A stretch of DNA of 39,484 nt, taken from assembly GCA_038061595.1 (NCBI GenBank), contig JBBTYZ010000006.1, positions 1 through 39,484 of the forward strand, read 5' to 3'. The position numbers were made by a program, and so were the translations under genes. Positions 5,251 to 38,777 of the stretch are shown here, one piece after another. Every line of letters begins with the position of its first letter. The first letter of the stretch is position 1. This stretch comes from Patescibacteria group bacterium (GTDB lineage: Bacteria > Patescibacteriota > Minisyncoccia > UBA6257 > GWB1-50-10). The notes under the pieces were generated by a model that did no database searches, was not told the origin of the DNA, and saw nothing but the letters and a program-made list of their open reading frames with translations.

Positions 5251-5267
5251 GTTTGACTATTCTTTCA

Positions 5268-5299
5268 ATGGACTGCTACCCTAATGGCAGTCCATTTTT
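5268..5299 (+). terminator. Second hairpin plus T-tract just upstream of the sigma-factor RBS
   Basis: Stem atggactgc/gcagtccat (5268-5276 / 5287-5295), then ttttt. RBS gaggagg at 5306-5312. Confidence 0.45.
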
Positions 5300-5317: not shown

Positions 5318-5896
5318 ATGGAAAATAAGGCGTTGGAACTCCAACAGGTCAGGTTTGAAAGGATGTTTTCCGAAAGGAAACAGATGGTGGTAGCTTTAGC
5401 AAGGAATTTAGTTTTGCTGTCTGACATCAAGGATTTAATCGAACCTGAAGATTTGGTACAAGAAACTCTACTCAAGGCTTGGAATGCCTTTGATACCTAT
5501 GATCCAATCCGCAGTCAATTCTCCAGTTGGTTAATCGTGATAATGAAGAGTCTGTTCTGGAGCAAGCTTCGCGTCTATAAAAGACGAATTGGAGTTGTTC
5601 GTGTCCCTGTGAGTGAAAACGAAATCCGTTTATATGAAAACGCCTCCTCTCCGGCGCTATCAATGCCAGATACGCAACTCGTTGAAAATGAGTTGCAAGA
5701 GTCTATAGCATTTGCGTTGGGAAAGTTGTCTGTAGAACACAGAGATGCAGTTATCGCAATGGATATAATGGGACTGACATACGAAGAAGCGGGAGCACTT
5801 CTTAATATAGATTCAGGCACTGTTAAGAGTAGACTAAACCGAGCACATAAGATTCTTAAAAAAGATCCAAAACTTATTAGCCTTAACTCCGCATAA
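5318..5896 (+). CDS. RNA polymerase sigma factor, ECF (sigma-70 group 4) family
   Basis: 192 aa. Region 2-like DLVQETLLKAWNAFDTYD..FSSWL and region 4 HTH AMDIMGLTYEEAGALLNIDSGTVKSRLNRA. Strong RBS. Confidence 0.8.
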   Translation: MENKALELQQVRFERMFSERKQMVVALARNLVLLSDIKDLIEPEDLVQETLLKAWNAFDTYDPIRSQFSSWLIVIMKSLFWSKLRVYKRRIGVVRVPVSENEIRLYENASSPALSMPDTQLVENELQESIAFALGKLSVEHRDAVIAMDIMGLTYEEAGALLNIDSGTVKSRLNRAHKILKKDPKLISLNSA

Positions 5897-12861: not shown

Positions 12862-12891
12862 TTGACAAAACGTCGGCTTTTTTGCTAATCT
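12862..12891 (+). promoter_or_regulatory. Candidate promoter of the str operon
   Basis: TTGACA 12862-12867, then 16-18 nt to gctaat/taatct. Confidence 0.4.
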
Positions 12892-12912: not shown

Positions 12913-13326
12913 ATGCCCACAATAGGACAGCTTATAAAGAGAGGTAGGAAGAGAATCTCAAGGAAGGAAAAAACTCCAGGCCTTTCTTTTTATTTCAATT
13001 ATTTGAAAAACAGACCGGTTGATTCTCCATCACCATTCAAACGGGGAGTTTGTGTAAAAGTTTTCACTACGACTCCTAAGAAACCGAACTCGGCTTTGAG
13101 AAAAGTGGCAAGAGTGCGTCTTACGAATGGGTCAGAGGTAACCGCTTATATTCCGGGTGAAGGGCATAATTTGCAGGAGCACTCTGTGGTTATGATCCGT
13201 GGCGGCAGGGTTAAAGATTTGCCGGGCGTAAGATATCATATTGTTAGAGGTGTATTGGATACTGGTGGAGTAGATAGGAATCAACAGAGATCAAAGTATG
13301 GGGCCAAACGTAAAAAGAAGGCATAA
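12913..13326 (+). CDS. rpsL: 30S ribosomal protein S12
   Basis: [12 protein letters not shown].., [19 protein letters not shown]. Carries a ~13 aa insertion near the N-terminus relative to E. coli S12. Confidence 0.95.
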
Positions 13327-25949: not shown

Positions 25950-27221
25950 ATGAATAAGTTCCTACAAGTTTTCAAAATACCAGATCTTAGGAAAAAAGTC
26001 CTGATGGTTTTGGGACTTCTTGTGTGTTTCAGACTACTTGCCGCAATCCCAATTCCAGGCATTGATCCATTAAAATTAAGTCAGTTTTTTTCTTCGAATC
26101 AAATATTCGGTTTCTTAAATGTTTTCTCGGGTGGCGGATTATCCAATTTATCACTTGTTATGTTGGGCGCAGGTCCGTTCATTACCGCATCTATTATAAT
26201 GCAGCTTCTCACAATCGTTTTCCCTAAATTAAAAAAAGCTTATTACGAAGAAGGTCCCGCCGGTAGGGCCAAGTTCAGTCGTTACTCGAGATATTTAACT
26301 GTGCCCTTAGCGTTTCTCCAGGCCTATGGATTCTTAAATCTTTTGGTTTCTCAGGGTGTCTTAAATCCTCTCCATGGCCTCGAGCTTTTGCGCACTGTTT
26401 TAGTTGTCACAAGTGGTAGCGTGCTTTTGATGTGGATAGGCGAACTTATAACTGAATATAAAATTGGAAACGGAATCTCCTTCATAATTTTTGCCGGCAT
26501 AGTGAGCAGTTTGCCACAGTATGTGTCTTCAAGTTTCTTGTCTTACAATCCCGGAGTTATACCAACCTATATAGCTTTTATTGTGTTAAGTATCGTAGTT
26601 ATAGCCGGAGTTGTTTTCGTGACCGAAGGAGAAAGAAAAATGCCTATTTCTTATGCTAAACAAGTACGTGGCAACAAAATGTACGGTGGGGTTGCAACAT
26701 ATCTACCATTAAAAGTTAACCAGGCCGGAGTTATACCAATTATATTTGCGATTTCTATACTTTTATTCCCGCAGTTTTTGGCGCAAATTGTAGCAATCGT
26801 TTCTCAGCCGCTATCACTAGCCTTAAACAGTTTGGTTGCAAAGGTTTTGAACAACATTGCGATTTATAGCTTGTTGTATTTCTTTTTGGTTGTTATTTTT
26901 ACTTATTTTTATACATCTATCACTTTTGATCCCAAAGAAATTGCTAAAAATTTACAGCGGGCTGGAGGATTCATTCCTGGTATCAGGCCGGGGGAGGCGA
27001 CCGCGGAAGCTATTGGACACACCGTTCGGCGCATAACTCTTTTTGGTGCGTTATTCTTGGGTATCATTGCTGTTTTGCCGAACATAACTCAAATCGTGAC
27101 GGGCATAAGCTCGCTTGCCGTGGGAGGCGCTGGCCTCCTCATCGTAGTGTCGGTTGCGCTTGAAGTAATGAAGCAAATCGAGTCTCAGTTAACTGTCCGA
27201 GAGTACGAAGGGATTTTTTAG
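25950..27221 (+). CDS. secY: Preprotein translocase subunit SecY
   Basis: 423 aa, ten-TM pattern, GIxPxITASIImQLL-like motif (GAGPFITASIIMQLL). Confidence 0.97.
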   Translation: MNKFLQVFKIPDLRKKVLMVLGLLVCFRLLAAIPIPGIDPLKLSQFFSSNQIFGFLNVFSGGGLSNLSLVMLGAGPFITASIIMQLLTIVFPKLKKAYYEEGPAGRAKFSRYSRYLTVPLAFLQAYGFLNLLVSQGVLNPLHGLELLRTVLVVTSGSVLLMWIGELITEYKIGNGISFIIFAGIVSSLPQYVSSSFLSYNPGVIPTYIAFIVLSIVVIAGVVFVTEGERKMPISYAKQVRGNKMYGGVATYLPLKVNQAGVIPIIFAISILLFPQFLAQIVAIVSQPLSLALNSLVAKVLNNIAIYSLLYFFLVVIFTYFYTSITFDPKEIAKNLQRAGGFIPGIRPGEATAEAIGHTVRRITLFGALFLGIIAVLPNITQIVTGISSLAVGGAGLLIVVSVALEVMKQIESQLTVREYEGIF

Positions 27222-27239
27222 GGGATTGTAACCTTGATA

Positions 27240-27268
27240 TTGACATAACATATATTATATGTTATCAT
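27240..27268 (+). promoter_or_regulatory. Cassette 1 promoter (TTGACA-17-TATCAT, TG-extended)
   Basis: -35 at 27240-27245, -10 at 27263-27268 preceded by TGt. Confidence 0.65.
27245..27265. repeat. Perfect 21-bp palindrome within the cassette 1 promoter spacer (candidate operator)
   Basis: ATAACATATA-T-TATATGTTAT spans from the last base of the -35 into the -10. Confidence 0.6.
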
Positions 27269-27274
27269 TAGAAA

Positions 27275-27370
27275 AGTAAGTTTCCATAAAGGTGAAAAGC
27301 ACCTTTTGCGGAGAGAAGATCTCTTCGAGGCATTGTGCCGGAAACGTTTTCAAAAATAGGCAAGGTTTTC
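27275..27370 (+). promoter_or_regulatory. Conserved 5' leader RNA, copy 1
   Basis: Hairpins aaaggtg/caccttt (27288-27306) and gagag/ctctt (27311-25). The block 27310-27360 matches 27965-28015 at 40 of 51 positions by hand alignment. Confidence 0.5.
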
Positions 27371-27817
27371 ATGGGTCCGTCTTTCGTGTGGTTGATGTAC
27401 GTAATGCCATGGCTCGTTTCAAACATCGTGCCGGTGGCGTTCGTCCTGCTTTTCATGGGCTGGATCTACACAAGCTCCATGCTTGCAATGCGTGTGCGGA
27501 AGGTGTCGGCGTATGTGCGGAAGTGGTCGGCGTTCTGGGACGTTTTTTCTCCCCAGGCAGCGGTGGACGCGAAGCTCGCCGAACTCGCGCGCAATCTGGA
27601 CATCACCTTTCAGGATCAGTTCATCCAGCGGTTCAGTAGTCAACTGAAACCAGCCGGCATGACGGATGAGGAATACCCCGCCTACGTGCATTCGCGGGTG
27701 GACAAGGCGAAGTCAGAGTTTTGGCACGCCGTAGAGGTCGCGAAGGGGATGGGTTGTAAAGTCCCGACGTCTTACAAAGACGTTCTGGGCAAACCCCTGA
27801 TGGTTCGCATGAAGTAA
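27371..27817 (+). CDS. Hypothetical N-terminally membrane-anchored protein, island paralog 1
   Basis: 148 aa from ATG 27371. ~37-residue hydrophobic N-terminus, then a helical soluble part. GC3-rich codons. Homologous to 28022-28405 (FSPQAAVDAKLAELARNLD vs FAPQLVVDRRIAELWCVLD; AKSEFWHAVEVAKGMGCKVP vs AKAAYMKACRIAEHEGYFVP). Confidence 0.7.
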   Translation: MGPSFVWLMYVMPWLVSNIVPVAFVLLFMGWIYTSSMLAMRVRKVSAYVRKWSAFWDVFSPQAAVDAKLAELARNLDITFQDQFIQRFSSQLKPAGMTDEEYPAYVHSRVDKAKSEFWHAVEVAKGMGCKVPTSYKDVLGKPLMVRMK

Positions 27818-27838
27818 CTCATCACGAAGAAACGGTAT

Positions 27839-27876
27839 CGCCGTCCCGATGTACATCGGGACGGCGTTTCTTTTTC
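27839..27876 (+). terminator. Strong intrinsic terminator, cassette 1
   Basis: cgccgtcccga tgtaca tcgggacggcg followed by tttcttttt. Confidence 0.85.
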
Positions 27877-27892
27877 TCCAATCATTCATTAC

Positions 27893-27921
27893 TTGACATA
27901 ATTATTTTATTGTGATAGTAT
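27893..27921 (+). promoter_or_regulatory. Cassette 2 promoter (TTGACA-17-TAGTAT, TG-extended)
   Basis: -35 at 27893-27898, -10 at 27916-27921 preceded by TGa. The -10 overlaps the ORF-track ATG at 27920. Confidence 0.65.
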
Positions 27922-27927
27922 GTATGC

Positions 27928-28021
27928 AGTAAAGTTTCTTGAAAGGCGCAGACCGTCTTTCGTAGGAGAGCAGACCTCTCTTAGGCATTTTGCCAGAAAC
28001 AGTTTCAAAACGAGGTGGGTT
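27928..28021 (+). promoter_or_regulatory. Conserved 5' leader RNA, copy 2
   Basis: Hairpins gaaaggcg/cgtctttc (27941-27961) and gagag/ctctc (27966-27980), both with CAGAC loops. SD gaggtgg at 28012-28018. Confidence 0.5.
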
Positions 28022-28405
28022 ATGTTCTGGATTACTAGCGTGTTTGTGGCGGTTCCCGTGATGATGTTGGGGTTTGTGATTCTGCGCTTGAGGTCGCGTT
28101 TAAACGCGTTCGCGCATGAATTCGCTCCCCAGTTGGTGGTGGATCGCCGCATCGCCGAACTCTGGTGCGTTCTGGACAACAGTTTCAGTGTCCAGATTTC
28201 ACTCCAGCAAGATGGAAGTTCCACGGCGTCGAGGGAAAGAGCTCTCGCGACTGCGAACGCAACCGTGGCAAGGGCCAAGGCCGCCTACATGAAGGCCTGT
28301 CGAATCGCGGAGCACGAGGGGTACTTCGTTCCTGTGAATCATCTGCAAGCCGAAAGCCTGGCTCGTAACTTCGATCTTCTCAAGCGTGGCACGGTCACGG
28401 CGTAG
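28022..28405 (+). CDS. Hypothetical N-terminally membrane-anchored protein, island paralog 2
   Basis: 127 aa from ATG 28022 (RBS gaggtgg). One TM (FWITSVFVAVPVMMLGFVIL), helical soluble part, GC3-rich codons. Confidence 0.7.
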   Translation: MFWITSVFVAVPVMMLGFVILRLRSRLNAFAHEFAPQLVVDRRIAELWCVLDNSFSVQISLQQDGSSTASRERALATANATVARAKAAYMKACRIAEHEGYFVPVNHLQAESLARNFDLLKRGTVTA

Positions 28406-28425
28406 CCCATCAAGAAGAAACGTAT

Positions 28426-28463
28426 CGCCGTCTCGATGTACATCGGGACGGCGTTTCTTTTTC
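28426..28463 (+). terminator. Strong intrinsic terminator, cassette 2
   Basis: Same hairpin as 27839-27876 with one stem mismatch (gtctcga vs gtcccga), followed by tttctttttc. Confidence 0.85.
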
Positions 28464-28488
28464 TAAAAAAGCTATTATTATAGTAAAT

Positions 28489-29169
28489 ATGCGAAAGGCA
28501 ATAATTATTTATGGACCTCCGGGTTCAGGAAAGGGGACGCAGGCTGAACTTTTGGCCAAGCGGTTTAGTTTTATTCATTTTGATACGGGAAGATACATAG
28601 AATCATTGGTTCATTCTCCAGAGATGAAAAAAAATGTGATTGTGCAAAGAGAAAGAAAGTTTTTTGATACAGGCAAGCTTTGCACGCCAAGTTGGGTTTT
28701 AAAAACTGTTAAAGAGGCAACCCGCAAGGTTGCAAAAAGCGGTTATGGAATAGTTTTCAGCGGTTCCCCGAGAACTCTTTTTGAAGCATTCGGAGATCAG
28801 AACCAAGAAGGGTTGCTTGCCGAACTTAAGGGTCTCTTTGGAAAAAATAATATTTTTGTGGTTCAGTTAGGCGTTAAAGATCAGAGCTCAATGATTAGAA
28901 ATAGCCACCGTTTGATTTGTTCGGTTTGTGGATTACCTGTAATGCGAGTGCATAAAAACGAACATTGTTCTTTTTGCGGAGGGGCTTTCAGAAGAAGAAC
29001 CCTAGACAAGCCCGAGATAATAAAAGTACGCTTAAAAGAATACCGCGAAAGGACTTATCCTATAATTCAAAACATGAGGAAGAGAGGAGTTAGGGTGTTT
29101 GAAGTTAATGGAGAGCCCGTTCCGTACAAAGTTAATCACGAACTCATTAAGAAGTTAAAATTAAAATGA
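28489..29169 (+). CDS. adk: Adenylate kinase (zinc-lid type)
   Basis: IYGPPGSGKGTQA P-loop and lid cysteines CSVCG..CSFCGG. Confidence 0.92.
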   Translation: MRKAIIIYGPPGSGKGTQAELLAKRFSFIHFDTGRYIESLVHSPEMKKNVIVQRERKFFDTGKLCTPSWVLKTVKEATRKVAKSGYGIVFSGSPRTLFEAFGDQNQEGLLAELKGLFGKNNIFVVQLGVKDQSSMIRNSHRLICSVCGLPVMRVHKNEHCSFCGGAFRRRTLDKPEIIKVRLKEYRERTYPIIQNMRKRGVRVFEVNGEPVPYKVNHELIKKLKLK

Positions 29170-29924
29170 TTCGTTTGAAGACGGAGAAAGATCTGGAGAA
29201 ATTGAGAGTGTCGGGTAAAATTTTGGCCTCTGTTTTGAAATCGTTATCCGTGGTAGCGAAGGAGGGGGTTGAGCTTAGGGAATTAGATGAGCTCGCGAGG
29301 AAGCTTATAAAAGAAGCGGGTGCTAGGCCAGCCTTTTTGGGTTATACCCCTGGAGGCGGACGTAAGCCGTATCCTGCGGCAATATGCACATCGGTTAACG
29401 ATACAATTGTTCATGGTATCCCGACAAAATATAAATTAAGAAAAAGAGACATTTTAAAAATAGATTTGGGTGTCCAATATGAAGGATATTTTACTGATTC
29501 GGCAGTAACGATTGGTATAGGTGAGGTTTCAAATATAGCGAAAAAGTTGATGTTGGTTACAAAGGAGGCTTTAGCTGCCGGCATTGAAAATTGCAGGCCT
29601 AATGGGCATTTGGGTGATATTGGTTGGGCCGTAGAGAAAGTCGTAAAGAAGGGGGGTTTTAAGGCAATAAACGGGCTTACCGGACACGGGGTGGGGTTTG
29701 AGGTACATGAGGATCCGACCATCTACAATTTTGGTGATAAGGGTACTGGGGTGAAATTAAAGCCAGGCATGGTCCTCGCAATTGAGCCGATGGTAAGCGC
29801 TGGCTCTTCCGATATAGTCCAAGATAATGACGACAGTTATAAAACCGCAGACGGAAGTTTATCCGCTCACTTTGAACATACGATTGCGATAACCGAAGAT
29901 GGAATTGAAGTGTTAACAAAATAG
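29166..29924 (+). CDS. map: Methionine aminopeptidase type I
   Basis: 252 aa. Metal ligands in the DILKIDLG, GHGVG, AIEP and HFEHT contexts. Confidence 0.95.
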   Translation: MIRLKTEKDLEKLRVSGKILASVLKSLSVVAKEGVELRELDELARKLIKEAGARPAFLGYTPGGGRKPYPAAICTSVNDTIVHGIPTKYKLRKRDILKIDLGVQYEGYFTDSAVTIGIGEVSNIAKKLMLVTKEALAAGIENCRPNGHLGDIGWAVEKVVKKGGFKAINGLTGHGVGFEVHEDPTIYNFGDKGTGVKLKPGMVLAIEPMVSAGSSDIVQDNDDSYKTADGSLSAHFEHTIAITEDGIEVLTK

Positions 29925-29946
29925 AAACCGCCTATTCGGCGGTTTC
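29924..29946. terminator. Bidirectional hairpin terminator shared by convergent map and topA
   Basis: gaaaccgcc tattc ggcggtttc, overlapping both stop codons. Confidence 0.65.
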
Positions 29947-32028
29947 TTCATTTTCTTCTTTAGTTTCTACTTCAGGCTCCTCTTCGCCCTCTTCTTTCTT
30001 TTCTCCGGTCGGTTTTGTCCAGCTTGCAAAATCACAATCAGGGTAGCGAGTACATCCGTAAAAGAATCTAGCGCGTTTAGTTCGTTTTCGAACAATTTCA
30101 CCTTCGCCGCACTTGGAGCATTTTATTCTTTCTCCTTTTTCATTTTCAATTCCCACATTTTTCTTTAATGATTTTGCATTTTTACAATTCGGGAAACCAC
30201 TGCAGGCCAAGAATTTTCCGAACCTCCCGGTTTTTATAACCATAGGTTTGCCGCATAGATCATCGTGTACGCATTTTGATTTGGGTGAACTATTTTTTCC
30301 CGTACAATCGCAGACTTCGTCGGTTGTCTCCGGTGGCGGTGCGATTTTATCCGGAACCTCTTCATATTTCTTTTTGAGGTTATCCGCAAACGGCCCATAG
30401 AAATCTCCGATTAGTCTTTGCCATTTTTCTTTACCCTCTGCTACGTTATCGAGTTGTTCCTCCATTTTAGCTGTGAATTGAATGTCCACTATTTGAGGAA
30501 AGTGTTCGGTTAAAACCTTGTTGACTAATGTTCCTATCTCGGTTGGTTCAAAGCGCCTTGCTTCGTTTTTCTGAACATAATTTCTCGTTTGGATAACAGA
30601 TAGGGTTGGGGCGTAAGTTGATGGGCGGCCTATATCAAAAGATTCTAGGGTTTTTATTAGGCTGGCCTCATTGTAACGCGGTGGCGGTTCCGTAAAATGT
30701 TGCTCAGGCTTTATTTCATCAAGTTTCAGAGTTTCATTTTCCTTGAGTTCGGGCAGCTCGTGTTCCTCGAATTTTTGTGGCCAAGCCTTAAGGAAGCCGT
30801 CAAATTTCAAAATATTGCCATTGGCTCTAAGTTCATAATTCTTATCTTTTGATTCAGCGGTGACCCCCACGCTCGTTGCATCGAAAATCGCCTGTGGCAT
30901 CTGCGTTGAAATGAACCTGCGCCAGATAAGTTCATATAATTTTTTCTCTTTTGGATCTTCCACAGTTATCTCATCCGGTGTTTTTGCGGGATCGGCCGGC
31001 CTTATTGCTTCGTGCGCCTCCTGCGCTAAACGTGATTTTGTTTTAAAAATTCTTGGCTCGTCTATTAAATATTTTTTACCAAATTCCTTTTCTATAGTAA
31101 CTCTCGCGGCGTCCAATGATCCCTGCGAAAGATTCACGGAATCTGTTCTCATGTAAGTTATGAGCCCGTTTTCATAAAGTCGTTGGGCGAACATCATTGT
31201 TTGTTTGGCGCTCCAATAAAGTTTTTTTGACCCTTCTTGTTGAAGAGTGCTCGTTATGAACGGAGGGAGGGGATTCTTTCTTACCTCTTTTTTGATAATC
31301 TCATTAATTTTAAACTCGGAGTTTTTTAAACTATCGCCAATTTTATCCGCCTCTTCTTTGTTTTTAATTCCGAGCTTGGTAATTGACTCACCGTTTATCT
31401 TATTAAGACTCGCGATAAACTTACCTTTTTTCGCTTCGAGATCCACATCAATCGTCCAATATTCATCGGCTTTAAATTTTTTTATTTCTTCTTCTCTTTC
31501 CACAATGAGGCGGAGCGCAACAGATTGAACTCGGCCGGCAGAAAGGCCTCTTATTATCTTTTTCCACAAAAATGGGGAGAGCTCATAACCAACTAGGCGG
31601 TCCAGTATCCTACGCGCCTGTTGGGCGTTTACCCTGTTTATGTCTATGTTTCTTGGAGACAAGAGTGCGTGTTGGAGGGCGCTTTCCGTTATTTCGTGAA
31701 ATACAATACGCTCTATATTATTTTTATTAGGATCAAGCCCTAATGCTTGAGTTAGATGCCAAGCGATTGCCTCACCTTCTCGGTCTTCGTCAGTTGCGAG
31801 AATAATTTTATCTGCTTTCGCCGCCAGCTTTTTAAGCGCATTCACGTTTTTCCTTGCCCTTACCGGGATGATATAGTGCGGCTCAAAATTATGTTCGATG
31901 TCTATGCCCAATTTGCTCTTAGGCAGATCTCTCACGTGTCCGTAAGAAGATTCGATTTTATATTTTTTCCCCAAAAACTTGCTTATTGTTTTTGCCTTGG
32001 TGGGCGATTCTACGATTACAAGATTCAT
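29932..32028 (-). CDS. topA: DNA topoisomerase I
   Basis: 698 aa. TOPRIM MNLVIVESPTKAKTI, catalytic-Tyr region (GLITYMRTDS), C-terminal zinc ribbons and an acidic tail. Confidence 0.97.
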   Translation of the reverse strand: MNLVIVESPTKAKTISKFLGKKYKIESSYGHVRDLPKSKLGIDIEHNFEPHYIIPVRARKNVNALKKLAAKADKIILATDEDREGEAIAWHLTQALGLDPNKNNIERIVFHEITESALQHALLSPRNIDINRVNAQQARRILDRLVGYELSPFLWKKIIRGLSAGRVQSVALRLIVEREEEIKKFKADEYWTIDVDLEAKKGKFIASLNKINGESITKLGIKNKEEADKIGDSLKNSEFKINEIIKKEVRKNPLPPFITSTLQQEGSKKLYWSAKQTMMFAQRLYENGLITYMRTDSVNLSQGSLDAARVTIEKEFGKKYLIDEPRIFKTKSRLAQEAHEAIRPADPAKTPDEITVEDPKEKKLYELIWRRFISTQMPQAIFDATSVGVTAESKDKNYELRANGNILKFDGFLKAWPQKFEEHELPELKENETLKLDEIKPEQHFTEPPPRYNEASLIKTLESFDIGRPSTYAPTLSVIQTRNYVQKNEARRFEPTEIGTLVNKVLTEHFPQIVDIQFTAKMEEQLDNVAEGKEKWQRLIGDFYGPFADNLKKKYEEVPDKIAPPPETTDEVCDCTGKNSSPKSKCVHDDLCGKPMVIKTGRFGKFLACSGFPNCKNAKSLKKNVGIENEKGERIKCSKCGEGEIVRKRTKRARFFYGCTRYPDCDFASWTKPTGEKKEEGEEEPEVETKEENEETAE

Positions 32029-32900
32029 GATTTAGATAAAAATTTTCCGTTTTTTTCTTCCAATAATCCTTCAATTGTAAGGAATGTTAGATTTCTATTC
32101 ACGATATAAGGTTCAAGTTTAGTTATTTCTGATATGCTGTCAACATCAAGTGGTTCTTTGGTGTTTTGCATGGCGCTTAAAATGAGCAATTGCTCTTTAT
32201 TACTTATCACCGAGTAATCGTTTTTCGCGACTGTTTTAAATTCGCCGAGGCCCAGATCTTCAATAACATCTTCCGCGCTTGTGATGAGTCGAGCGCCGTC
32301 TCTTAAAAGCATATGCGAACCTTTGTAATTAGGATGATTTGCGGGGCCTGGTACGACCAAGACTTCGCGTCCCTGGTTCAAGGCGTGCCTTGCTGTTGAA
32401 AGAGAGCCCGAGTCTATAGAAGCTTCGATGATTATAACCCCAAGAGATAGGCCGCTTATTATTCGGTTTCGTTCCAAAAATAGCGCGTCATAATAATTTC
32501 CTGTTTCTTGTCGTTCTGATAACAAACATCCGTTGGTTTTAAGCATCTGCTGAGCAAGACCGAAATGTCTGCGCGGATATACTTCTTTAACACCGTTTCC
32601 TAAAACTGCAATCGTTTTGCCATTTCCCAAAAGCGCTCCCTCGTGGGCGGCTGCATCAATGCCAAGTGCAAGCCCGCTTACTATTGTAATTCCTTTTTGA
32701 GCCAAATCACGCGCTAGTGATTTCGCTGTGTCTATGCCTTCGCGAGAGGCCTTCCTTGTGCCGACGATGGAAATCAACACCTCATCCTCTTTTGGTAATT
32801 TTCCTAAATAATAAATTTTAGAAGGGGCTCCGGAGACCTCTTTTAAAAGGCGAGGATATTCTTTGTCTTTAATTAATACACTTTTTATTGTTGGGGACAT
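32025..32900 (-). CDS. dprA: DNA processing protein DprA (Smf)
   Basis: 291 aa. Rossmann-like SGLALGIDAAAHEGAL motif. 4-nt overlap with the topA start. Confidence 0.9.
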   Translation of the reverse strand: MSPTIKSVLIKDKEYPRLLKEVSGAPSKIYYLGKLPKEDEVLISIVGTRKASREGIDTAKSLARDLAQKGITIVSGLALGIDAAAHEGALLGNGKTIAVLGNGVKEVYPRRHFGLAQQMLKTNGCLLSERQETGNYYDALFLERNRIISGLSLGVIIIEASIDSGSLSTARHALNQGREVLVVPGPANHPNYKGSHMLLRDGARLITSAEDVIEDLGLGEFKTVAKNDYSVISNKEQLLILSAMQNTKEPLDVDSISEITKLEPYIVNRNLTFLTIEGLLEEKNGKFLSKS

Positions 32901-32942
32901 TAGAACTATGATAAACTACTTAATGTAAGTATGTAAATTTAC

Positions 32943-33284
32943 ATGAAATATCCCATTTTTAAAATAAGAACAATGCTGGTTTTAAATATCCTAAGCTTAA
33001 TTGTCCTTTTTATAACTCTCATTTTGATAATTTTGAACAAAGAAAGTCTGAATCAGCCGATTATTCTGCATTACGATTCGTTTGGGGGCATTGATCTCTT
33101 TGGTACGCCCAATGATTTGTGGGGGATTTGGCTGGCCGGATTGGTAACTGGTGTGGTTAATGTGTTTTTGGGCGCGGCATTCTTTTACAGAGAAAGAATA
33201 CTTACTTATCTATTTCTCGGGGCGAACGTCGTAATTGCTATACTGGTTTTAGTTGCGGTCGCGAACATTATTTCAGTAAATTAA
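32943..33284 (+). CDS. Hypothetical membrane protein
   Basis: 113 aa, three hydrophobic helices. TAATG overlap with rmuC. Confidence 0.5.
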   Translation: MKYPIFKIRTMLVLNILSLIVLFITLILIILNKESLNQPIILHYDSFGGIDLFGTPNDLWGIWLAGLVTGVVNVFLGAAFFYRERILTYLFLGANVVIAILVLVAVANIISVN

Positions 33285-34327
33285 TGGATACCAACTCGGT
33301 AATAATTTTAACAGTTGTAATTCTTGGTTTCGGATTTATTTTTTGGTTTCTAAAAAGTAAGTTACAAGCACCGAAAGAAGATAGTCAAGCATTACTAATG
33401 CTTCAGAACCAATTAAATGAAGTCACAAGAACCCTTAATAGTCGTCTGGGCGAATCAACAGATCTTATGCAGCGGCACAGTCAATCTACTATTAAGATTA
33501 CCCAAACTCTGACAGAAAAATTAACTCGGCTTGAGGAGACTAATAAGCAGGTGGTTAATTTTGCGGATCAACTTCAGAGCCTTCAAGATATTTTGAAGAA
33601 TCCCAAACAAAGGGGTATTTTGGGCGAATATTATCTGGAGACGGTTTTGAAAAATGTGCTACCACCTGGTTCATACAAGATGCAATATGCTTTTAATGAC
33701 GGTGTGATTGTTGATGCCGTGGTATTGATTGATAAGCGTATTATTCCTATCGATTCTAAGTTTAGTTTGGAAAATTATAACCGTATTTTGGAAGCTAGGG
33801 ATCCCGCAGAGAAGAAGAAATATGAAGCAGCCCTTGTAGCGGATATCAAAAATCGGATTGATGAAACTTCCAAATATGTTAAACCAGCCGAAAACACTAT
33901 GGATTTCGCTTTCATGTTTATTCCTTCTGAAGCGGTTTATTATGACCTCCTTATAAACAAAGTTGGTTCAGTGGGAGACGATACGAGAAATTTAATACAT
34001 TACGCCGGACAGAAAAAAGTTATTGTGGTTTCACCCACATCGTTTCTGGCCTATCTTCAAACAGTTTTGCAGGGTCTCCGTAATCAAAAAATATCCGAAC
34101 AGGCTAAAGATATCGTGAAGCAGGTGGAAAATCTCAGTCGGCATCTTTTGAGCTATGAAGATTATGTACAAAAACTCGGCAAAAATTTAGGGACAACCGT
34201 GAGCATGTATAACAATGCTTATAAAGAATTCGGCAAGATAGATAAAGACGTTTTGAAAATTACTGGAGAGGCGATGGAGATTGAACCTCTTAGCGTGGAA
34301 GGACCCGTGAAAGATGATGAAAGTTGA
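33284..34327 (+). CDS. rmuC: DNA recombination protein RmuC
   Basis: 347 aa. N-terminal TM, coiled coil, C-terminal nuclease-like region (IPIDSKF.., FMFIPSEAVY). Confidence 0.8.
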   Translation: MDTNSVIILTVVILGFGFIFWFLKSKLQAPKEDSQALLMLQNQLNEVTRTLNSRLGESTDLMQRHSQSTIKITQTLTEKLTRLEETNKQVVNFADQLQSLQDILKNPKQRGILGEYYLETVLKNVLPPGSYKMQYAFNDGVIVDAVVLIDKRIIPIDSKFSLENYNRILEARDPAEKKKYEAALVADIKNRIDETSKYVKPAENTMDFAFMFIPSEAVYYDLLINKVGSVGDDTRNLIHYAGQKKVIVVSPTSFLAYLQTVLQGLRNQKISEQAKDIVKQVENLSRHLLSYEDYVQKLGKNLGTTVSMYNNAYKEFGKIDKDVLKITGEAMEIEPLSVEGPVKDDES

Positions 34328-35186
34328 GGAAAAAATACGGAAGCTTTTATCTTTTTATTCGGTATTAGGTCGGCCGCTTACTTTTTTGGAGATAGCGCGG
34401 CTTTTACCCGAGTTAAGAAAAACCGACATTTTGGAGGGACTTAATGGACTTGTCGCGACAGGTTATTCGAAAGAAGATGGCGGGTTCTGGGGCGTTAATA
34501 CTAATACAAACCTAAGGAAGCAAACCGACTTCCTTTTAGATCAGAAGTGGAACAAATTCCTAAAATATAAAAAGATTTTTGGATTCATACCTTTTATTGA
34601 TTTTGTTTTTGGGACGGGTTCTATGGCCTTGGGGAACGTCCACCCTGATTCCGATTTCGACGTTTTAATAGGAGCGAGGCAGGACAGAATTTTTACAACA
34701 AGAATTTTTACTATTCTTGCTCTAAATATTTTTGGAATTAGACGCAAAAGAATAGACCATAAGAAATCGGCTAAAAATAAGATATGTTTGAATCATTTTG
34801 TTACGCCAGCAAGTTATAAGTTAAAAGAACCATACAATATTTATTGGAAAGAACTTTATAAAAACATTGTTCCTGTTTTTGGCAATCGGGATAAAGTCCA
34901 GGAATTCTTGGATTCCAATAAGTGGGCAGGGGATTTGAATCTTATAAACGATGAACGTCTTAGTGGTACGAAATCGATCGTTGCTAAGTTATTTGAATTT
35001 GTATTGGGCGGTTTTATGGGTGGTATAATTGAATCGTTTTTGGGAAGATTGCAGATTAGTAAAATAAATAAACATCTTGAGGGAAGTTTGGGTTATAAGC
35101 CGAGGGTTATTTTTGACGAGAATGAGTTGGAATTTCATTTGGATACGAAAAGAATTGAAACTATGTTATCCAAATCCGGAGAATAA
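34314..35186 (+). CDS. Nucleotidyltransferase-fold protein with N-terminal winged-helix-like region
   Basis: 290 aa. GSMALGNVHPDSDFDV (G-S..D-x-D pol-beta-type NTase signature). Overlaps rmuC by 14 nt. Confidence 0.55.
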   Translation: MMKVEEKIRKLLSFYSVLGRPLTFLEIARLLPELRKTDILEGLNGLVATGYSKEDGGFWGVNTNTNLRKQTDFLLDQKWNKFLKYKKIFGFIPFIDFVFGTGSMALGNVHPDSDFDVLIGARQDRIFTTRIFTILALNIFGIRRKRIDHKKSAKNKICLNHFVTPASYKLKEPYNIYWKELYKNIVPVFGNRDKVQEFLDSNKWAGDLNLINDERLSGTKSIVAKLFEFVLGGFMGGIIESFLGRLQISKINKHLEGSLGYKPRVIFDENELEFHLDTKRIETMLSKSGE

Positions 35187-35243: not shown

Positions 35244-35588
35244 ATGAAACCTGACTTCGTTCCAGAGGATGTTGTTTTGAGGGCCTTGAAAATATTAGAA
35301 GATAAAAACATAATCGCGCATTTTTTTCAGGCGGAAAAGAATGGCCAGATTGATAGGGATGGGATTGATTTTTTAATTTTCCTCGAGAACGGTTTATGTT
35401 TGCCTCTTCAGGTAAAAAGAGGCAAAAAAGCGCTTGCGAGTCATTTCCGAAAACATCCCCATGTGAAATTTGTAATTATTGTTTCAAGGGATAGGCCTGA
35501 GCGAATAGCTAATAGTATTCGGCGAATGATATGCAAAATCCCTGAACTTAAGAAGCCGTTGGGTCGTATTTTAATGAGAAACACTTGA
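35244..35588 (+). CDS. Hypothetical protein, possible PD-(D/E)xK-like fold
   Basis: 114 aa. RBS ggggag. DGIDFLIF...LPLQVK resembles a D..(E/Q)xK nuclease core; this assignment is weak. Confidence 0.45.
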   Translation: MKPDFVPEDVVLRALKILEDKNIIAHFFQAEKNGQIDRDGIDFLIFLENGLCLPLQVKRGKKALASHFRKHPHVKFVIIVSRDRPERIANSIRRMICKIPELKKPLGRILMRNT

Positions 35589-35618
35589 CTTTAAGGCGTG
35601 ATCTGTTATACTACCGAT

Positions 35619-35704
35619 TGGTGAGTGTGAGTATTCCTTTACGATGATATCGGCAAAGGAATGCCTCTCTGGTCCACCCCGATTTCCGGGGTGGTTTTCG
35701 TTTT
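35619..35704 (+). ncRNA. Candidate small RNA A (promoter and terminator bounded)
   Basis: Promoter TTGACT 35585-90, 16 nt, TGt-TATACT 35607-12. Hairpin attccttt..aaaggaat 35633-62. Terminator ccacccc/ggggtgg 35674-94 plus ttttcgtttt. Confidence 0.4.
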
Positions 35705-35752
35705 ATAAGGATCAATCTTGCTATATAACAACTCGTATTTTATTCTATTATT

Positions 35753-35897
35753 GGGCGGATGGATCGAGCACTCACTAATTTAAAAAAATTGGAGGTCACC
35801 ACTATCCGCCCTCGCGTGAGACCGAGTGCTTAACTTTGTCTCGCGCGAGGAGACTTAATAAATAACGCCAATATTTGTGGCGTTATTTATTTTTTTT
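35753..35897 (+). ncRNA. Candidate small RNA B (structured, promoter and terminator bounded)
   Basis: Promoter TTGCTA 35718-23, 17 nt, TATTCT 35741-46. P1 gggcggat/atccgccc. P2 is a 12-bp ctcgcgtgagac/gtctcgcgcgag stem. The P2 loop gagtgct is complementary to agcactc in the P1 loop. 14-bp terminator stem plus T8. Confidence 0.4.
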
Positions 35898-36076
35898 GTA
35901 AACCGGGGGTTGGAATATTTTTACATTAAATAAATCCTGACGAGTTATCCACATATTTTTTAAAAACTAAATTATTTTTATGATATAATTAAAATTAATT
36001 AATGATCATTGAAAGTACTACTGAGATACTTTACGAGGGCGGTCGATAACCTCGTCCAGAGAGATATTTTTACTTA

Positions 36077-36154
36077 ATGAAGAAAAGAAAGAAAACAGGT
36101 AAAAAGGTAACTAGGAAGCCTAAAAGAAAGGCAGCCAAAAAACGAAAGAGATAA
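36077..36154 (+). CDS. Candidate 25-aa highly basic peptide (MKKRKKTGKKVTRKPKRKAAKKRKR)
   Basis: ATG..TAA ORF in its own unit. Extended -10 TGaTATAAT at 35981-89, ~80 nt leader with hairpin acgagg/cctcgt, strong terminator downstream. No clear SD. Confidence 0.35.
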   Translation: MKKRKKTGKKVTRKPKRKAAKKRKR

Positions 36155-36170
36155 CCCTCTTCTACCTTTT

Positions 36171-36200
36171 CCCCCGCCACTAGGGCGGGGGTCGTTTTTT
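36171..36200 (+). terminator. Intrinsic terminator
   Basis: cccccgcc acta ggcggggg followed by tcgtttttt. Confidence 0.8.
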
Positions 36201-36205
36201 ATCTA

Positions 36206-36234
36206 TTGAGAATTAACGCGAGCTAACCTATAAT
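36206..36234 (+). promoter_or_regulatory. secA promoter (TTGAGA-17-TATAAT)
   Basis: -35 at 36206-36211, -10 at 36229-36234. Confidence 0.6.
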
Positions 36235-36287
36235 ACTTGTGATTATTACCAATAATTTATCGGAAAGTTTAGCCGAATTTAAAAATT

Positions 36288-38777
36288 ATGTTTAACACCC
36301 TTAAGAAAATTTTCAAGGGAAATGCAACTTCATCCTTCCAATCTGTTGTCAATGAAATAAATAATCTTGAGTCAGATATACGTAATTTATCGGACGAGGA
36401 TTTGAAGAGAGAGAGCGCTGCTTTAAAAAATTCACTTGGCGAACAGGTTTCTCTGGACAATATTTTGCCCAGGGCATTCGCTTTGGTGCGAGAAGCCTCC
36501 AGGCGAACTTTGGGCCAGCGACACTTTGATTCACAGATTATAGGTGGTATCGTTTTGCATAAAGGAAGAATCGCTGAAATGATGACCGGGGAAGGAAAAA
36601 CTCTTTCAGCTACAACTGCGGCTTATTTGAACGCGCTTTCGGGGAAGGGGGTCCATGTCGTCACCGTAAACGATTATCTTGCCAGGCGTGATGCTTCCTG
36701 GATGGGTCAGATTTATAACGCTTTAGGACTCACGGTTTCGTGCATAGTCCATAATACGGCTTACAGGTACGACTCTTCGTTTGAGTCTGGGGGGCTTGAT
36801 AAGGAAAGAGATGAGTTGGGCAACTTTAAAGTTGTTGAAAATTTCTTGCGACCCATTTCAAGAAAAGATGCATATCTTGCGGATATCACTTATGGCACAA
36901 ATCATGAGTTTGGCTTTGATTTTCTGAGGGATAATTTAGCCCTGCGGCTTAATGATAAAGTTCAACGAGAGCACAACTACGTTATTATTGACGAAGTTGA
37001 TTCAATTTTAATTGATGAGGCGAGAACACCGCTTATTATTGCTTCTCCCGATCAAGAATCAAGTTCTTTTTATAAAGTGTTTGCAACCGTGTCTAAAAAC
37101 CTACAACCCGAAGAAGATTATTTAGTTGATGAGAAATTAAAATCTGTAAGTATCACTGATTCCGGGATTGAGAAAGTTGAGAAGATGCTTAAGATCACAA
37201 ATATATATTCTCCAGAATCTGCCCGTCTGGTTCATTTTTTACAAGAAAGCTTGAAGGCTAAAGCTCTTTTTAACCGCGACAAGGAGTATATAGTCAAAAA
37301 TGGCGAGATAATTATTGTTGATGAATTTACGGGTCGGTTGTTGCAGGGTAGGCGTTATTCAGGTGGGTTACACCAGGCAATTGAGGCAAAAGAAGGCGTA
37401 CAAGTTAAAGACGAGAACAGGACTTATGCTCAGATAACGATTCAAAACTATTTTCGTCTTTACAAGAAAATTTCTGGAATGACGGGCACTGCTCAAACCT
37501 CTGCTGAAGAATTTCACAAAGTTTATAATCTTGAGGTTGTGGTTGTTCCCACTAATCGTCCTATGGTAAGGCATGACGCGCCAGATGTCGTTTACAAGAA
37601 TAAAAAAGCAAAGTATCAAGCGATTGTAGAAGAGGTTAAAAAAAGGCATGAAAAAGGACAGCCGATTTTACTTGGAACCAGTTCTATAAGCAACAACGAA
37701 ATAATATCCGATTATTTGAAGCACGCAGGAATTGTGCATGAAGTTTTGAACGCGAAGAATAACGAGAAAGAAGGAGCGATTATAGCTCAAGCGGGCAGAT
37801 CTGGCGCAATAACCGTTGCTACAAATGTTGCAGGCCGGGGCGTGGACATTGTTTTGGGCGGGAATCCGGCGACAACAGAAGAGGCACGGAGAGTAGTTGA
37901 GTCTGGTGGTCTTCATGTTATTGGCACCGAGCGTCATGAAGCGCGGAGAATTGATAACCAATTAAGAGGCCGTTCGGGCAGGCAGGGCGATGCGGGTGGA
38001 ACTCAGTTTTTCTTATCGTTGGAAGATGATCTGTTGCGAATATTCGGAGGAGATAAGATAGGCAGGTTGATGGACTCATTTAATTTACCGGAAGATCTTC
38101 CGATTGAATCAAGGATGGTATCAAGCGCAGTAAACCAAGCTCAAGCGCGCGTTGAAGGCGCCAATTTGGATTTAAGAAAACACCTGCTTGAATTTGATGA
38201 TGTGCTGAATAAACAACGTACGGCTGTTTATAAAAGGAGGTTGAATTATCTTGAGTTGGGAGAGAAAAATGAAATCAGATCAATCTTGGAAGAAGCGCTC
38301 AAGCACTTTGTGGATGAGAATATAAAAAATATTGGATTAAATCCAGAAGTTGATCTCACGGACAGAGATAAGAAAGTAAGTGAACTGAACGACAAGTTGC
38401 AGGGAATACCGAAAGAATTTGAACGCGAAAGATCGGTCGCTGTTGCCGAACACATGGTGAGAATTTTAGATATGCTTTGGATAGGCAATTTGGAAAATTT
38501 GGAAGCTCTAAGAGAATCGGTAAACATCCGCGCTTATGGTCAGCACGAACCGCTCGTTGAATACAGAAAAGAAGCATTCAAGCTTTTTCAAGAACTTAGC
38601 TTTAACTTTGAATCAATGCTTTTTAATACGGTTTTTGAGGTCTTGGGAGCCGACATAGAAAAATTAAAAAATCCTGTTGTAGTTGTCCAAAAACCACGAG
38701 ATGTTAAGGAACCGGGCCGCAATGATCCCTGTTGGTGTGGGAGTGGGAAGAAGCACAAGAAGTGTCACGGTAAATAA
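36288..38777 (+). CDS. secA: Preprotein translocase ATPase SecA
   Basis: 829 aa. MMTGEGKTL Walker A, DEVDSILIDEARTPLII, C-terminal zinc motif CWCGSGKKHKKCH. Confidence 0.97.
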   Translation: MFNTLKKIFKGNATSSFQSVVNEINNLESDIRNLSDEDLKRESAALKNSLGEQVSLDNILPRAFALVREASRRTLGQRHFDSQIIGGIVLHKGRIAEMMTGEGKTLSATTAAYLNALSGKGVHVVTVNDYLARRDASWMGQIYNALGLTVSCIVHNTAYRYDSSFESGGLDKERDELGNFKVVENFLRPISRKDAYLADITYGTNHEFGFDFLRDNLALRLNDKVQREHNYVIIDEVDSILIDEARTPLIIASPDQESSSFYKVFATVSKNLQPEEDYLVDEKLKSVSITDSGIEKVEKMLKITNIYSPESARLVHFLQESLKAKALFNRDKEYIVKNGEIIIVDEFTGRLLQGRRYSGGLHQAIEAKEGVQVKDENRTYAQITIQNYFRLYKKISGMTGTAQTSAEEFHKVYNLEVVVVPTNRPMVRHDAPDVVYKNKKAKYQAIVEEVKKRHEKGQPILLGTSSISNNEIISDYLKHAGIVHEVLNAKNNEKEGAIIAQAGRSGAITVATNVAGRGVDIVLGGNPATTEEARRVVESGGLHVIGTERHEARRIDNQLRGRSGRQGDAGGTQFFLSLEDDLLRIFGGDKIGRLMDSFNLPEDLPIESRMVSSAVNQAQARVEGANLDLRKHLLEFDDVLNKQRTAVYKRRLNYLELGEKNEIRSILEEALKHFVDENIKNIGLNPEVDLTDRDKKVSELNDKLQGIPKEFERERSVAVAEHMVRILDMLWIGNLENLEALRESVNIRAYGQHEPLVEYRKEAFKLFQELSFNFESMLFNTVFEVLGADIEKLKNPVVVVQKPRDVKEPGRNDPCWCGSGKKHKKCHGK

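Follow-up and report, generated by a model that had tools for sequence, protein, structure and literature searches.

What lies between secY and adk in an ultra-small groundwater bacterium, and where it came from, is the question raised by a 39,484-nt contig (JBBTYZ010000006.1 of assembly GCA_038061595.1, referred to over its whole length as the window) of a Patescibacteria genome assembled from the 0.1-μm fraction of Hainich groundwater. An original prediction, made from the DNA letters, had described the 1267-nt gap between the two genes (window 27222-28488) as a GC-rich island of two tandem, paralogous units, each with its own promoter, leader, coding sequence (CDS) and terminator, and had likened it to a phage moron or another acquired module. 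Both could be mapped as two tandem transcription units, and the proteins encoded by their open reading frames (ORFs), ORF1 and ORF2, are 27% identical (E 2e-8) and hence paralogs, diverged members of a rare family. The leader of each unit, ~95 nt from promoter to CDS region, had been noted in the prediction, but its nature as a conserved structured RNA had been missed; this previously uncatalogued, covariation-supported leader RNA is our main new result and the most informative feature of the locus. We are highly confident of what the feature is, namely a two-unit module of a rare membrane-protein family with a structured leader, and offer a tentative proposal for how the leader may work.

A leader RNA and its protein family

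The leader, a four-way junction of ~70 nt, occupies the very start of the mRNA, the junction itself opening some 5 nt past the predicted 5′ terminus. Helix P0 (UUUCC/GGAAA) encloses P1 (7 bp, with a G-C-closed pentaloop that is typically AAGAA), P2 (6 bp, pentaloop A/C-A-G-A-A) and P3 (GGCA-nnn-UGCC). In unit 1 the leader spans 27275-27351 (+ strand), as judged from the minimum free energy (MFE) fold, from covariation and from a score of 84.1 bits with R1, a covariance model built from nine leaders, with P0 at 27280-27285/27340-27345, P1 at 27288-27294/27300-27306, P2 at 27310-27315/27321-27326 and P3 at 27329-27332/27336-27339. The same junction recurs in unit 2 (27929-28006, + strand; R1 78.7 bits), with P0 at 27934-27939/27995-28000, P1 at 27942-27948/27954-27960, P2 at 27965-27970/27976-27981 and P3 at 27984-27987/27991-27994. 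The two leader cores are 72-78% identical, and compensatory changes in unit 2 relative to unit 1 comprise C-G to U-A in P0 and U-A to C-G in P1. For most family members the four-way junction is the single-sequence MFE fold.

Covariation was assessed in 10 leaders aligned with plain MAFFT, the structure playing no part in the alignment (a 9-leader version was also run). As can be seen from this alignment, 94.8% of the cells are in standard pairs and both sides change in 16 of the 23 pairs (31 such cells), whereas a control in which the 3′ partners were slid by 1-3 columns gave 42-50% paired cells and 2-5 doubly changed pairs; in 500 column shuffles the observed values were never attained. Compensation is found in P0 (UUUCC/GGAAA, UUUCU/AGAAA, GUUCC/GGGAAC, CUCC/GGGAG and CCCUU/AAGGG) as well as in P1 (GGUG/CACC, GGCG/CGUC, GGAUGA/UCAUCC and AUGCG/CGUGU). 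The junction and linker nucleotides are variable, and among unpaired bases only those in the two G[N-A-R-A-N]C pentaloops are conserved.

All family members examined are preceded by the leader, and their genomic contexts number at least six. R1 recovers leaders on which it was not trained upstream of family members in loci L101 (54 bits), L089 (28.9) and L085 (26.4), and detects a shorter "type B" leader upstream of the genes for P0014 and P0019 (21-29 bits, E 1e-5 to 3e-3). At E<0.01 it finds nothing elsewhere in 0.89 Mb of Patescibacteria loci, the whole window included; in the sequence sampled the leader associates exclusively with the family. Rfam 15 (4227 families), searched at gathering and permissive thresholds with the island and four family loci, gave no real match, and a full-text search of the published literature returned nothing on the motif. 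An rRNA mimic or ribosomal-protein leader was also considered and rejected, the best R1 score against the E. coli rrn operon being 8 bits (E 0.3).

Across family members the leaders are 58-91% identical in nucleotides and the proteins 25-46% in amino acids. This is clearest in three syntenic loci (L092, L096 and the short L088) with the order rnc-smc-X-(PBP)-(RNase R), X being the family gene: here SMC is 70-88% identical, RNase III 79%, the leader 88-91% and the X protein 40-46%. The X protein thus changes far more rapidly than the proteins encoded next to it, and strong constraint acts on the leader.

An exhaustive HMMER search of 1.84 billion representative proteins (E<=1e-3) yielded, besides the two window proteins, 17 matches with E 1.6e-9 to 9e-4, of which 16 are real homologs; the other, P0012 (1073 aa), was excluded as a TPR protein whose repeats produce the match to the C-terminal motif. 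The homologs are 117-178 aa long and share one architecture, in which one to three hydrophobic N-terminal helices precede a helical domain of about 90 aa, with the motifs F-[VL]-T-Q-x-x-V-D-x-K-L-x-x-L-A and A-K-x-x-F-W-x-A-x-x-L-A-x-x-x-G-F-x-V-P-x-x-Y. Identity within the family is 25-33%, in a star-like pattern, and each of its 90% clusters has only 1-2 members. The earlier statement that the proteins match no recognised family thus holds for curated collections, remote homologs nonetheless being detectable: Pfam, PHROGs, NCBIfam and PADLOC yielded no meaningful match for the two window proteins or across all 18 family members (the best YtxH match, in one of the 18, has E 0.016), a sequence-profile search of the PDB gave no match, and Foldseek against PDB and BFVD returned generic helical bundles only (E>=0.5). 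A word-indexed protein search retrieved at first self matches only and later four family members. The only name that any source supplied for the clusters is "hypothetical protein [Candidatus Paceibacterota]", and a JGI label of P0006 as YjiN (DUF445) receives no support from Pfam. We appear to be dealing with a rare, unnamed family that, judged from the contigs at hand, so far occurs only on those attributable to Patescibacteria.

The membrane anchor and helical domain foreseen for both proteins are borne out by their hydropathy and, for ORF1, by a confident AlphaFold2 model based on the family alignment, with a predicted local distance difference test (pLDDT) of 89.9 and three long helices (residues 3-58, 61-88 and 101-126). 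A K/R cluster directly follows the membrane helix and by the positive-inside rule suggests a cytoplasmic soluble domain, which speaks against the envelope-exposed role that had been contemplated. An arginine-rich segment lies beside the membrane helix, for example TRRRRFI in P0005 and P0015, and neither profile nor fold searches revealed transporter- or enzyme-like features. YhcB (DUF1043) and YtxH-like proteins (PF12732) resemble the window products in length (~130 aa), in their single N-terminal membrane helix, in their long helices and in a likely cytoplasmic part, but in the absence of a significant sequence or fold match they are architectural analogues only.

Layout of the two units and their host neighbours

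Unit 1 starts with a promoter at 27240-27268 (+ strand) that consists of TTGACA, a 17-nt spacer and the TG-extended -10 box TATCAT (TTGACA-17-TGTTATCAT) and matches the consensus at 11 of 12 positions. Past the leader follow a Shine-Dalgarno (SD)-like GGCAAGG (27359-27365, + strand, read from the sequence) with the ATG 5 nt downstream, ORF1 (27371-27817, + strand; 148 aa, with an N-terminal membrane helix at about residues 5-40 and the helical domain) and an intrinsic terminator (27828-27877, + strand) with a 12-bp stem at 27839-27866, a U-tract and an upstream A-tract (fold -29.3 kcal/mol, z -6.2). Unit 2 repeats this arrangement, with a promoter at 27893-27921 (+ strand; TTGACA, 17-nt spacer, TG-extended -10 TAGTAT, written TTGACA-17-TGATAGTAT), the SD GAGGTG at 28012-28017 (+ strand, read from the sequence), ORF2 at 28022-28405 (+ strand; 127 aa, membrane helix at residues 2-21 and helical domain) and a terminator at 28418-28464 (+ strand; 12-bp stem 28426-28453, fold -26.2 kcal/mol, z -5.6) whose core is identical to that of unit 1 at 42 of 43 positions. 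From stop codon to U-tract (~64 nt) the two units are about 92% identical. Near-identical 3′ ends (~92-98%) next to such divergent CDSs (~27-31% at the protein level) indicate that gene conversion acts at the window units.

Sites of the form TTGACN-(14-16 nt)-TGNTANNNT occur only five times in 39 kb, where 0.35 are expected by chance, and may be usable as a promoter consensus for this organism; the unit 1 promoter is one of the five. Sites of the same type precede an ECF-like sigma-factor gene (site 5253-5282, gene 5318-5896) and the host gene rpsL (site 12862-12891, gene 12913-13326).

The island is flanked by secY (25950-27221, + strand; a 423-aa ORF) and adk (28489-29169, + strand), followed by map (29166-29924); assignment to PF00344 SecY, to PF00406 ADK and of map to its Pfam family was made on an identical public contig. 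The adk start lies 24 nt past the second terminator and has no SD, and no + strand promoter is recognisable between that terminator and the adk ATG, where there is only TATTAT/TATAGT at ~28473-28483. With neither an SD nor room for a normal promoter, expression of adk-map seems to rely on transcripts that start at the island promoters and read through the terminators, or else on a leaderless mRNA. Apart from the island the window holds housekeeping genes only. As had been claimed, neither integrase nor transposase genes nor flanking direct repeats are seen around the island, and ARAGORN found no tRNA there. The units do not resemble integron gene cassettes either, each having its own promoter and palindromes that are terminators with U-tracts, and there is no integrase.

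Farther along the window, ~700 nt of intergenic sequence upstream of secA (35585-36280) contain a host-type extended -10 promoter (35585-35612), and the hairpin- or terminator-like elements after it, which have no Rfam match at the gathering threshold, may be small RNAs. An extremely basic ORF of 25 codons, MKKRKKTGKKVTRKPKRKAAKKRKR, lies at 36079-36156 and has its own terminator.

Composition, genomic contexts and origin

Whether the units are foreign was addressed at the junction itself, in their composition and in the contexts of their homologs. The relatives compared were the 80 best SecY matches among GTDB species representatives, all Patescibacteria-type metagenome-assembled genomes (MAGs), a part of them recorded under titles with other taxon labels. 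Even the nearest SecY is only 77% identical, too distant to date the insertion. The loci of these 80 relatives contain neither relatives of ORF1 or ORF2 (tblastn) nor copies of the leader (R1 scan). In L008, L010 and L012 (SecY 66-76% identical) adk follows secY at 2-14 nt and there is no insert, in keeping with the original prediction of an insertion. The gap of other relatives holds unrelated ORFs which, as read from translations with no profile search, resemble histidine phosphatase, NUDIX or HIT proteins, are guanylate- or cytidylate-kinase-like, or are hypothetical. On this sampling the unit pair was either gained in this lineage or lost from all relatives compared, and the secY-adk junction, previously taken as one of the most conserved adjacencies, is generally permissive in Patescibacteria. 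In a distant candidate phyla radiation (CPR) genome, Magasanikbacteria GW2011_GWC2_37_14 (LBSX01000014.1, L081 6300-8000), a GC-rich insert of ~1.7 kb likewise lies directly after secY; it has a GC content of 0.48-0.60 against 0.37 for the locus and small membrane-type ORFs with third-position GC (GC3) of 0.74-0.82, is unrelated in sequence to the window family and has no Rfam match.

The island CDSs form the GC maximum of the window (0.595 in 200-nt windows; mean 0.403, sd 0.05), and 300-nt windows within them reach a GC content of 0.55-0.58, the surrounding sequence having ~0.36-0.45. The GC-rich parts are the CDSs and the terminator stems only, so that the description as a GC-rich island applies to these and not to the promoter and leader spacers (36-43% GC). 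The preference of the island codons for G or C at their ends was confirmed, with a GC3 of 0.73 in ORF1 and 0.68 in ORF2 against 0.35-0.42 in the host genes secY, adk, map, topA, fusA, tuf and rplB. This excess, together with a clear three-base periodicity, marks both ORFs as real coding sequences rather than GC-rich RNA genes.

Such an excess is found throughout the family, whose genes exceed their neighbours in GC3 in 9 of 10 loci: the difference is +0.33 for ORF1 and +0.28 for ORF2 of the window, +0.31 in L092, +0.22 in L096, +0.13 in L099, ~+0.08 in both L085 and L088, +0.05 in L098 and +0.04 in L101, L095 being the exception at -0.07. In the syntenic smc-linked trio the family gene has a GC3 of 0.63-0.69 and the adjoining genes 0.35-0.55; the excess thus survives long, apparently vertical descent and gives neither proof nor a date of transfer. 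High GC3 is a property of the family and not a clock for recent import, which takes away the ground on which the composition had been read as a sign of foreign or phage origin. Selection on mRNA structure was rejected as its cause, CDS folding being ordinary (z +0.3, -1.4 and +0.1), as was the host pattern of highly expressed genes, GC3 being only 0.35-0.38 in tuf, fusA and rplB. A reasonable candidate cause, from comparison with the sister lineages, would be GC-biased gene conversion or a repeated exchange of alleles between lineages, GC-rich ones among them: secY of L005, L007, L008 and L009 has a GC3 of 0.68-0.84, and L005 comes from the same aquifer system.

Family loci share more than composition. 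The same order of promoter, leader, SD, CDS and terminator is found in every family locus retrieved (L085, L088, L089, L091/L099, L092, L095, L096, L097, L098 and L101), and in the promoters TTGAC[ATG] and a 17-nt spacer are mostly followed by a TG-extended -10 box. The unit stands in two copies after secY in the window, after smc in L088, L092 and L096, between rplB and rplJ in L099, after rplU in L101, after a comF-like gene and before tRNAs in L085, and after a histidine kinase-like ORF (read from its translation) in L098. The motif CATCACGA past the stop codon is common to the window units and the smc group, and with homology extending from the -35 box into the 3′ untranslated region (UTR) the unit relocates as a whole block. 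Ribosomal-protein neighbours occur in 3 of ~7 distinct contexts (secY, rplU and L099; rough p about 0.05, borderline). In L099 (1469-5569) rplB is the last gene of the S10-type cluster, beyond which lie the X gene and rplJ-rplL in that order, gene names having been read from ORF translations, with Pfam support for rplJ and rplL. In L091, which is the same locus, the rplJ leader (745-905) is very strongly structured (z -9), has no match to the Rfam L10 leader and opens with CCGTAAGGTCGAAGAC, which differs little from the first nucleotides of the X-family leader 600 nt upstream.

The strongest rival explanation is that of a recently acquired foreign module, a phage moron or similar, whose composition reflects a GC-richer donor. 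Atypical composition and absence of the insert from the junction of all close relatives agree with a horizontally acquired island, the former being weakened as the composition is family-wide. The GC3 of the units (0.68-0.73) equals that of secY in the GC-rich sister lineages, the differing contexts across lineages mean that the unit does move, and GC3 rises over the last ~60 secY codons as a recombination tract might give. On the other hand, homologs in phages or plasmids were found neither by DNA nor by protein, profile or fold searches (PHROGs, IMG/VR, INPHARED, BFVD and plasmid BLAST), and the DNA patterns of terminator and leader gave 0 matches in viral contig and metagenome contig collections; a protein profile (sub-alignment) search returned nothing viral and one metagenome locus, L099, the same as L091. 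The promoters are host-type, as before rpsL, and the island shows no mobility machinery, no direct repeats at its flanks and no tRNA or att target. High GC3 in syntenic orthologs with neighbours 70-88% identical gives no sign of recency. Phage morons are autonomous promoter-gene-terminator units in prophages, such as bor and lom of lambda; like them, the island is self-contained and of atypical composition between two genes of a conserved block, but it is flanked by secY and adk, lacks phage homologs, has host-type promoters and a conserved structured leader, and owes its composition to a family trait. We therefore see no support for the phage moron and regard a recent foreign import as unlikely. 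The relocation of the unit as a block supports the earlier idea of a self-contained module, but nothing found links it to phages or plasmids.

The end of secY deserves separate mention. Over its last ~60-90 codons (window 26950-27221) GC3 is 0.5-0.63, against 0.2-0.47 upstream. Neither amino-acid nor third-position identity is raised there in any available relative, and no donor signal is found among the relatives at hand; a recombination tract entering secY, though conceivable, was dropped for this reason.

Given the missing phage or plasmid link, the missing mobility features and the host-type promoters, an origin within Patescibacteria is the economical reading. The pair probably reached the secY-adk junction by illegitimate insertion of one or two units from the same genome or from another Patescibacterium, and the 3′ ends of the two units were probably homogenised later by gene conversion. 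A more far-reaching reading, which we consider decidedly improbable, would make the unit a recombinase-free, self-regulating module that relocates and is passed between Patescibacteria, with its conserved noncoding ends as recombination anchors, its leader bound by its own fast-evolving, membrane-tethered product and its GC3 sustained against AT-biased hosts by exchange or GC-biased conversion. If this were true, reduced genomes would harbour a small mobile regulatory unit of a new kind.

How the leader may act

The reading that we prefer, an autonomous Patescibacteria gene module under post-transcriptional leader control, is in our judgement moderately probable as a whole, combining high confidence in the identity of the feature with a much more tentative view of the leader mechanism. 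The near-consensus extended -10 promoters and strong terminators would imply abundant monocistronic mRNAs, on which the leader might act in cis and post-transcriptionally, through mRNA stability, translation or both. It could be recognised by a protein via its two G[N-A-R-A-N]C pentaloop hairpins, two look-alike conserved loops being a pattern typical of sites for a dimeric or repeated RNA-binding surface. The simplest candidate binder would be the product itself, by way of the arginine-rich stretch beside its membrane helix; the constant co-occurrence of leader and protein, together with this stretch, favours feedback by the product, a possibility that we put forward tentatively from sequence comparison. 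The outcome would be autoregulation of a strongly transcribed, membrane-anchored and cytoplasm-facing protein. Phage lambda N and boxB, in which an arginine-rich peptide recognises a purine-rich pentaloop hairpin, offer an analogy only: the leader has two G-C-closed N-A-R-A-N pentaloops and its product an arginine-rich segment, but the register supported by covariation is an AAGAA loop closed by G-C and not the GAAGA loop of boxB, there is no antitermination context, and binding of the leader is putative.

Several observations weigh against this proposal. The leader set is small (10 type-A and 4 type-B sequences from few lineages), and the restriction of the family to Patescibacteria rests on contig titles and gene content. 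The poorly conserved junction nucleotides argue against a small-molecule pocket and are no proof of protein binding. No conserved expression platform is found among the leaders, neither an attenuator terminator nor consistent pairing with the SD, and the predicted accessibility of the SD varies from 0.04 to 0.67 among members, so that the mode of regulation is a guess. Autoregulation draws on co-occurrence and on the arginine-rich segment only, and the latter is itself explicable by the positive-inside rule. The CDSs have no excess RNA structure, the high GC3 of the family is accounted for neither by their folding nor by the host expression pattern, and the syntenic orthologs fit vertical inheritance and replacement by allelic exchange alike.

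A leader that is purely a 5′ stabiliser of the mRNA is an alternative that we think rather unlikely, and another trans-acting factor may act on the leader in place of the product. A riboswitch or an ion or temperature sensor, controlling a membrane protein that handles the sensed signal, is less probable still. Structured cis-regulators in 5′ UTRs include the four-way-junction NiCo riboswitches and ribosomal-protein autoregulatory leaders, and the leader resembles them as a compact, covariation-supported multihelix junction at the mRNA 5′ end, tightly tied to one downstream gene family; with no Rfam match it would constitute a new class. The structured domain expected of an aptamer is thus present, but the coupled expression platform was not found, there being no conserved terminator or SD-sequestering alternative. 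The junction and linker bases vary, conserved unpaired positions sitting in two similar hairpin loops, and the product lacks transporter- or enzyme-like features. The leader also differs from the known cis-regulators in having no Rfam or E. coli rRNA match and no conserved junction core. The position at the extreme 5′ end, the variable linkers and the lack of an attenuator or of consistent SD sequestration argue against a classical metabolite riboswitch, and the leader better fits a protein-recognised or stabilising 5′ domain.

Type I toxin-antitoxin-like loci, that is, small membrane toxins restrained by structured 5′ UTRs and arranged in tandem like ldr, hok and ibs, share with the island the tandem intergenic copies, the strong promoters and terminators of each unit, the structured 5′ UTR and the hydrophobic N-terminus of the product, and weak antisense promoter-like sites are present at 27933-27904 and 28501-28474. 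We nevertheless rate this explanation as very improbable, since the family proteins (117-178 aa) have a conserved, confidently folded soluble domain and are not peptides under 60 aa, the window products exceeding the expected length two- to threefold, there is no sign of a conserved antisense RNA, and PADLOC and Pfam gave no match.

As to the assembly, the window is identical to NCBI contig CAYHZZ010000003.1 of GCA_964361385.1, which spans both junctions, and an independent ENA assembly, L002, covers window 26365-34727 and thus both junctions at 99.85% identity (9 mismatches). Two further assemblies, L003 and L004, begin inside the island, at window 27837 and 27857; these positions lie in the repeated terminator, where a 43-nt repeat is expected to break short-read graphs. 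An artefact, whether a chimeric assembly, against which the original prediction had advised a check, or a GC-rich noncoding RNA misread as two ORFs, has next to no probability in view of the two contigs crossing both junctions, the codon periodicity, protein homologs and confident predicted fold of the ORFs, and the lack of any tRNA or Rfam match in the island, although L003 and L004 do start within it. Elsewhere in the window, positions 36145-36428 hold sequence that is absent from the public NCBI record, where the contig has a 100-N scaffold gap; L003 ends at 36144.

Patescibacteria, also known as the candidate phyla radiation, have tiny genomes and few known regulators, and to our knowledge almost no regulatory RNAs have been described in them. 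The locus yields an uncatalogued 5′ leader RNA, for which a calibrated covariance model is now available, together with a matching uncharacterised protein family; RNA and family alike can be surveyed across CPR genomes. It also carries a caution for genome scans, in that for this family a strong GC3 anomaly in an AT-rich genome is kept in syntenic orthologs and is on its own no evidence of recent horizontal transfer. Finally, two strong terminators placed before the essential adk-map pair bear on how the end of the ribosomal superoperon is transcribed.

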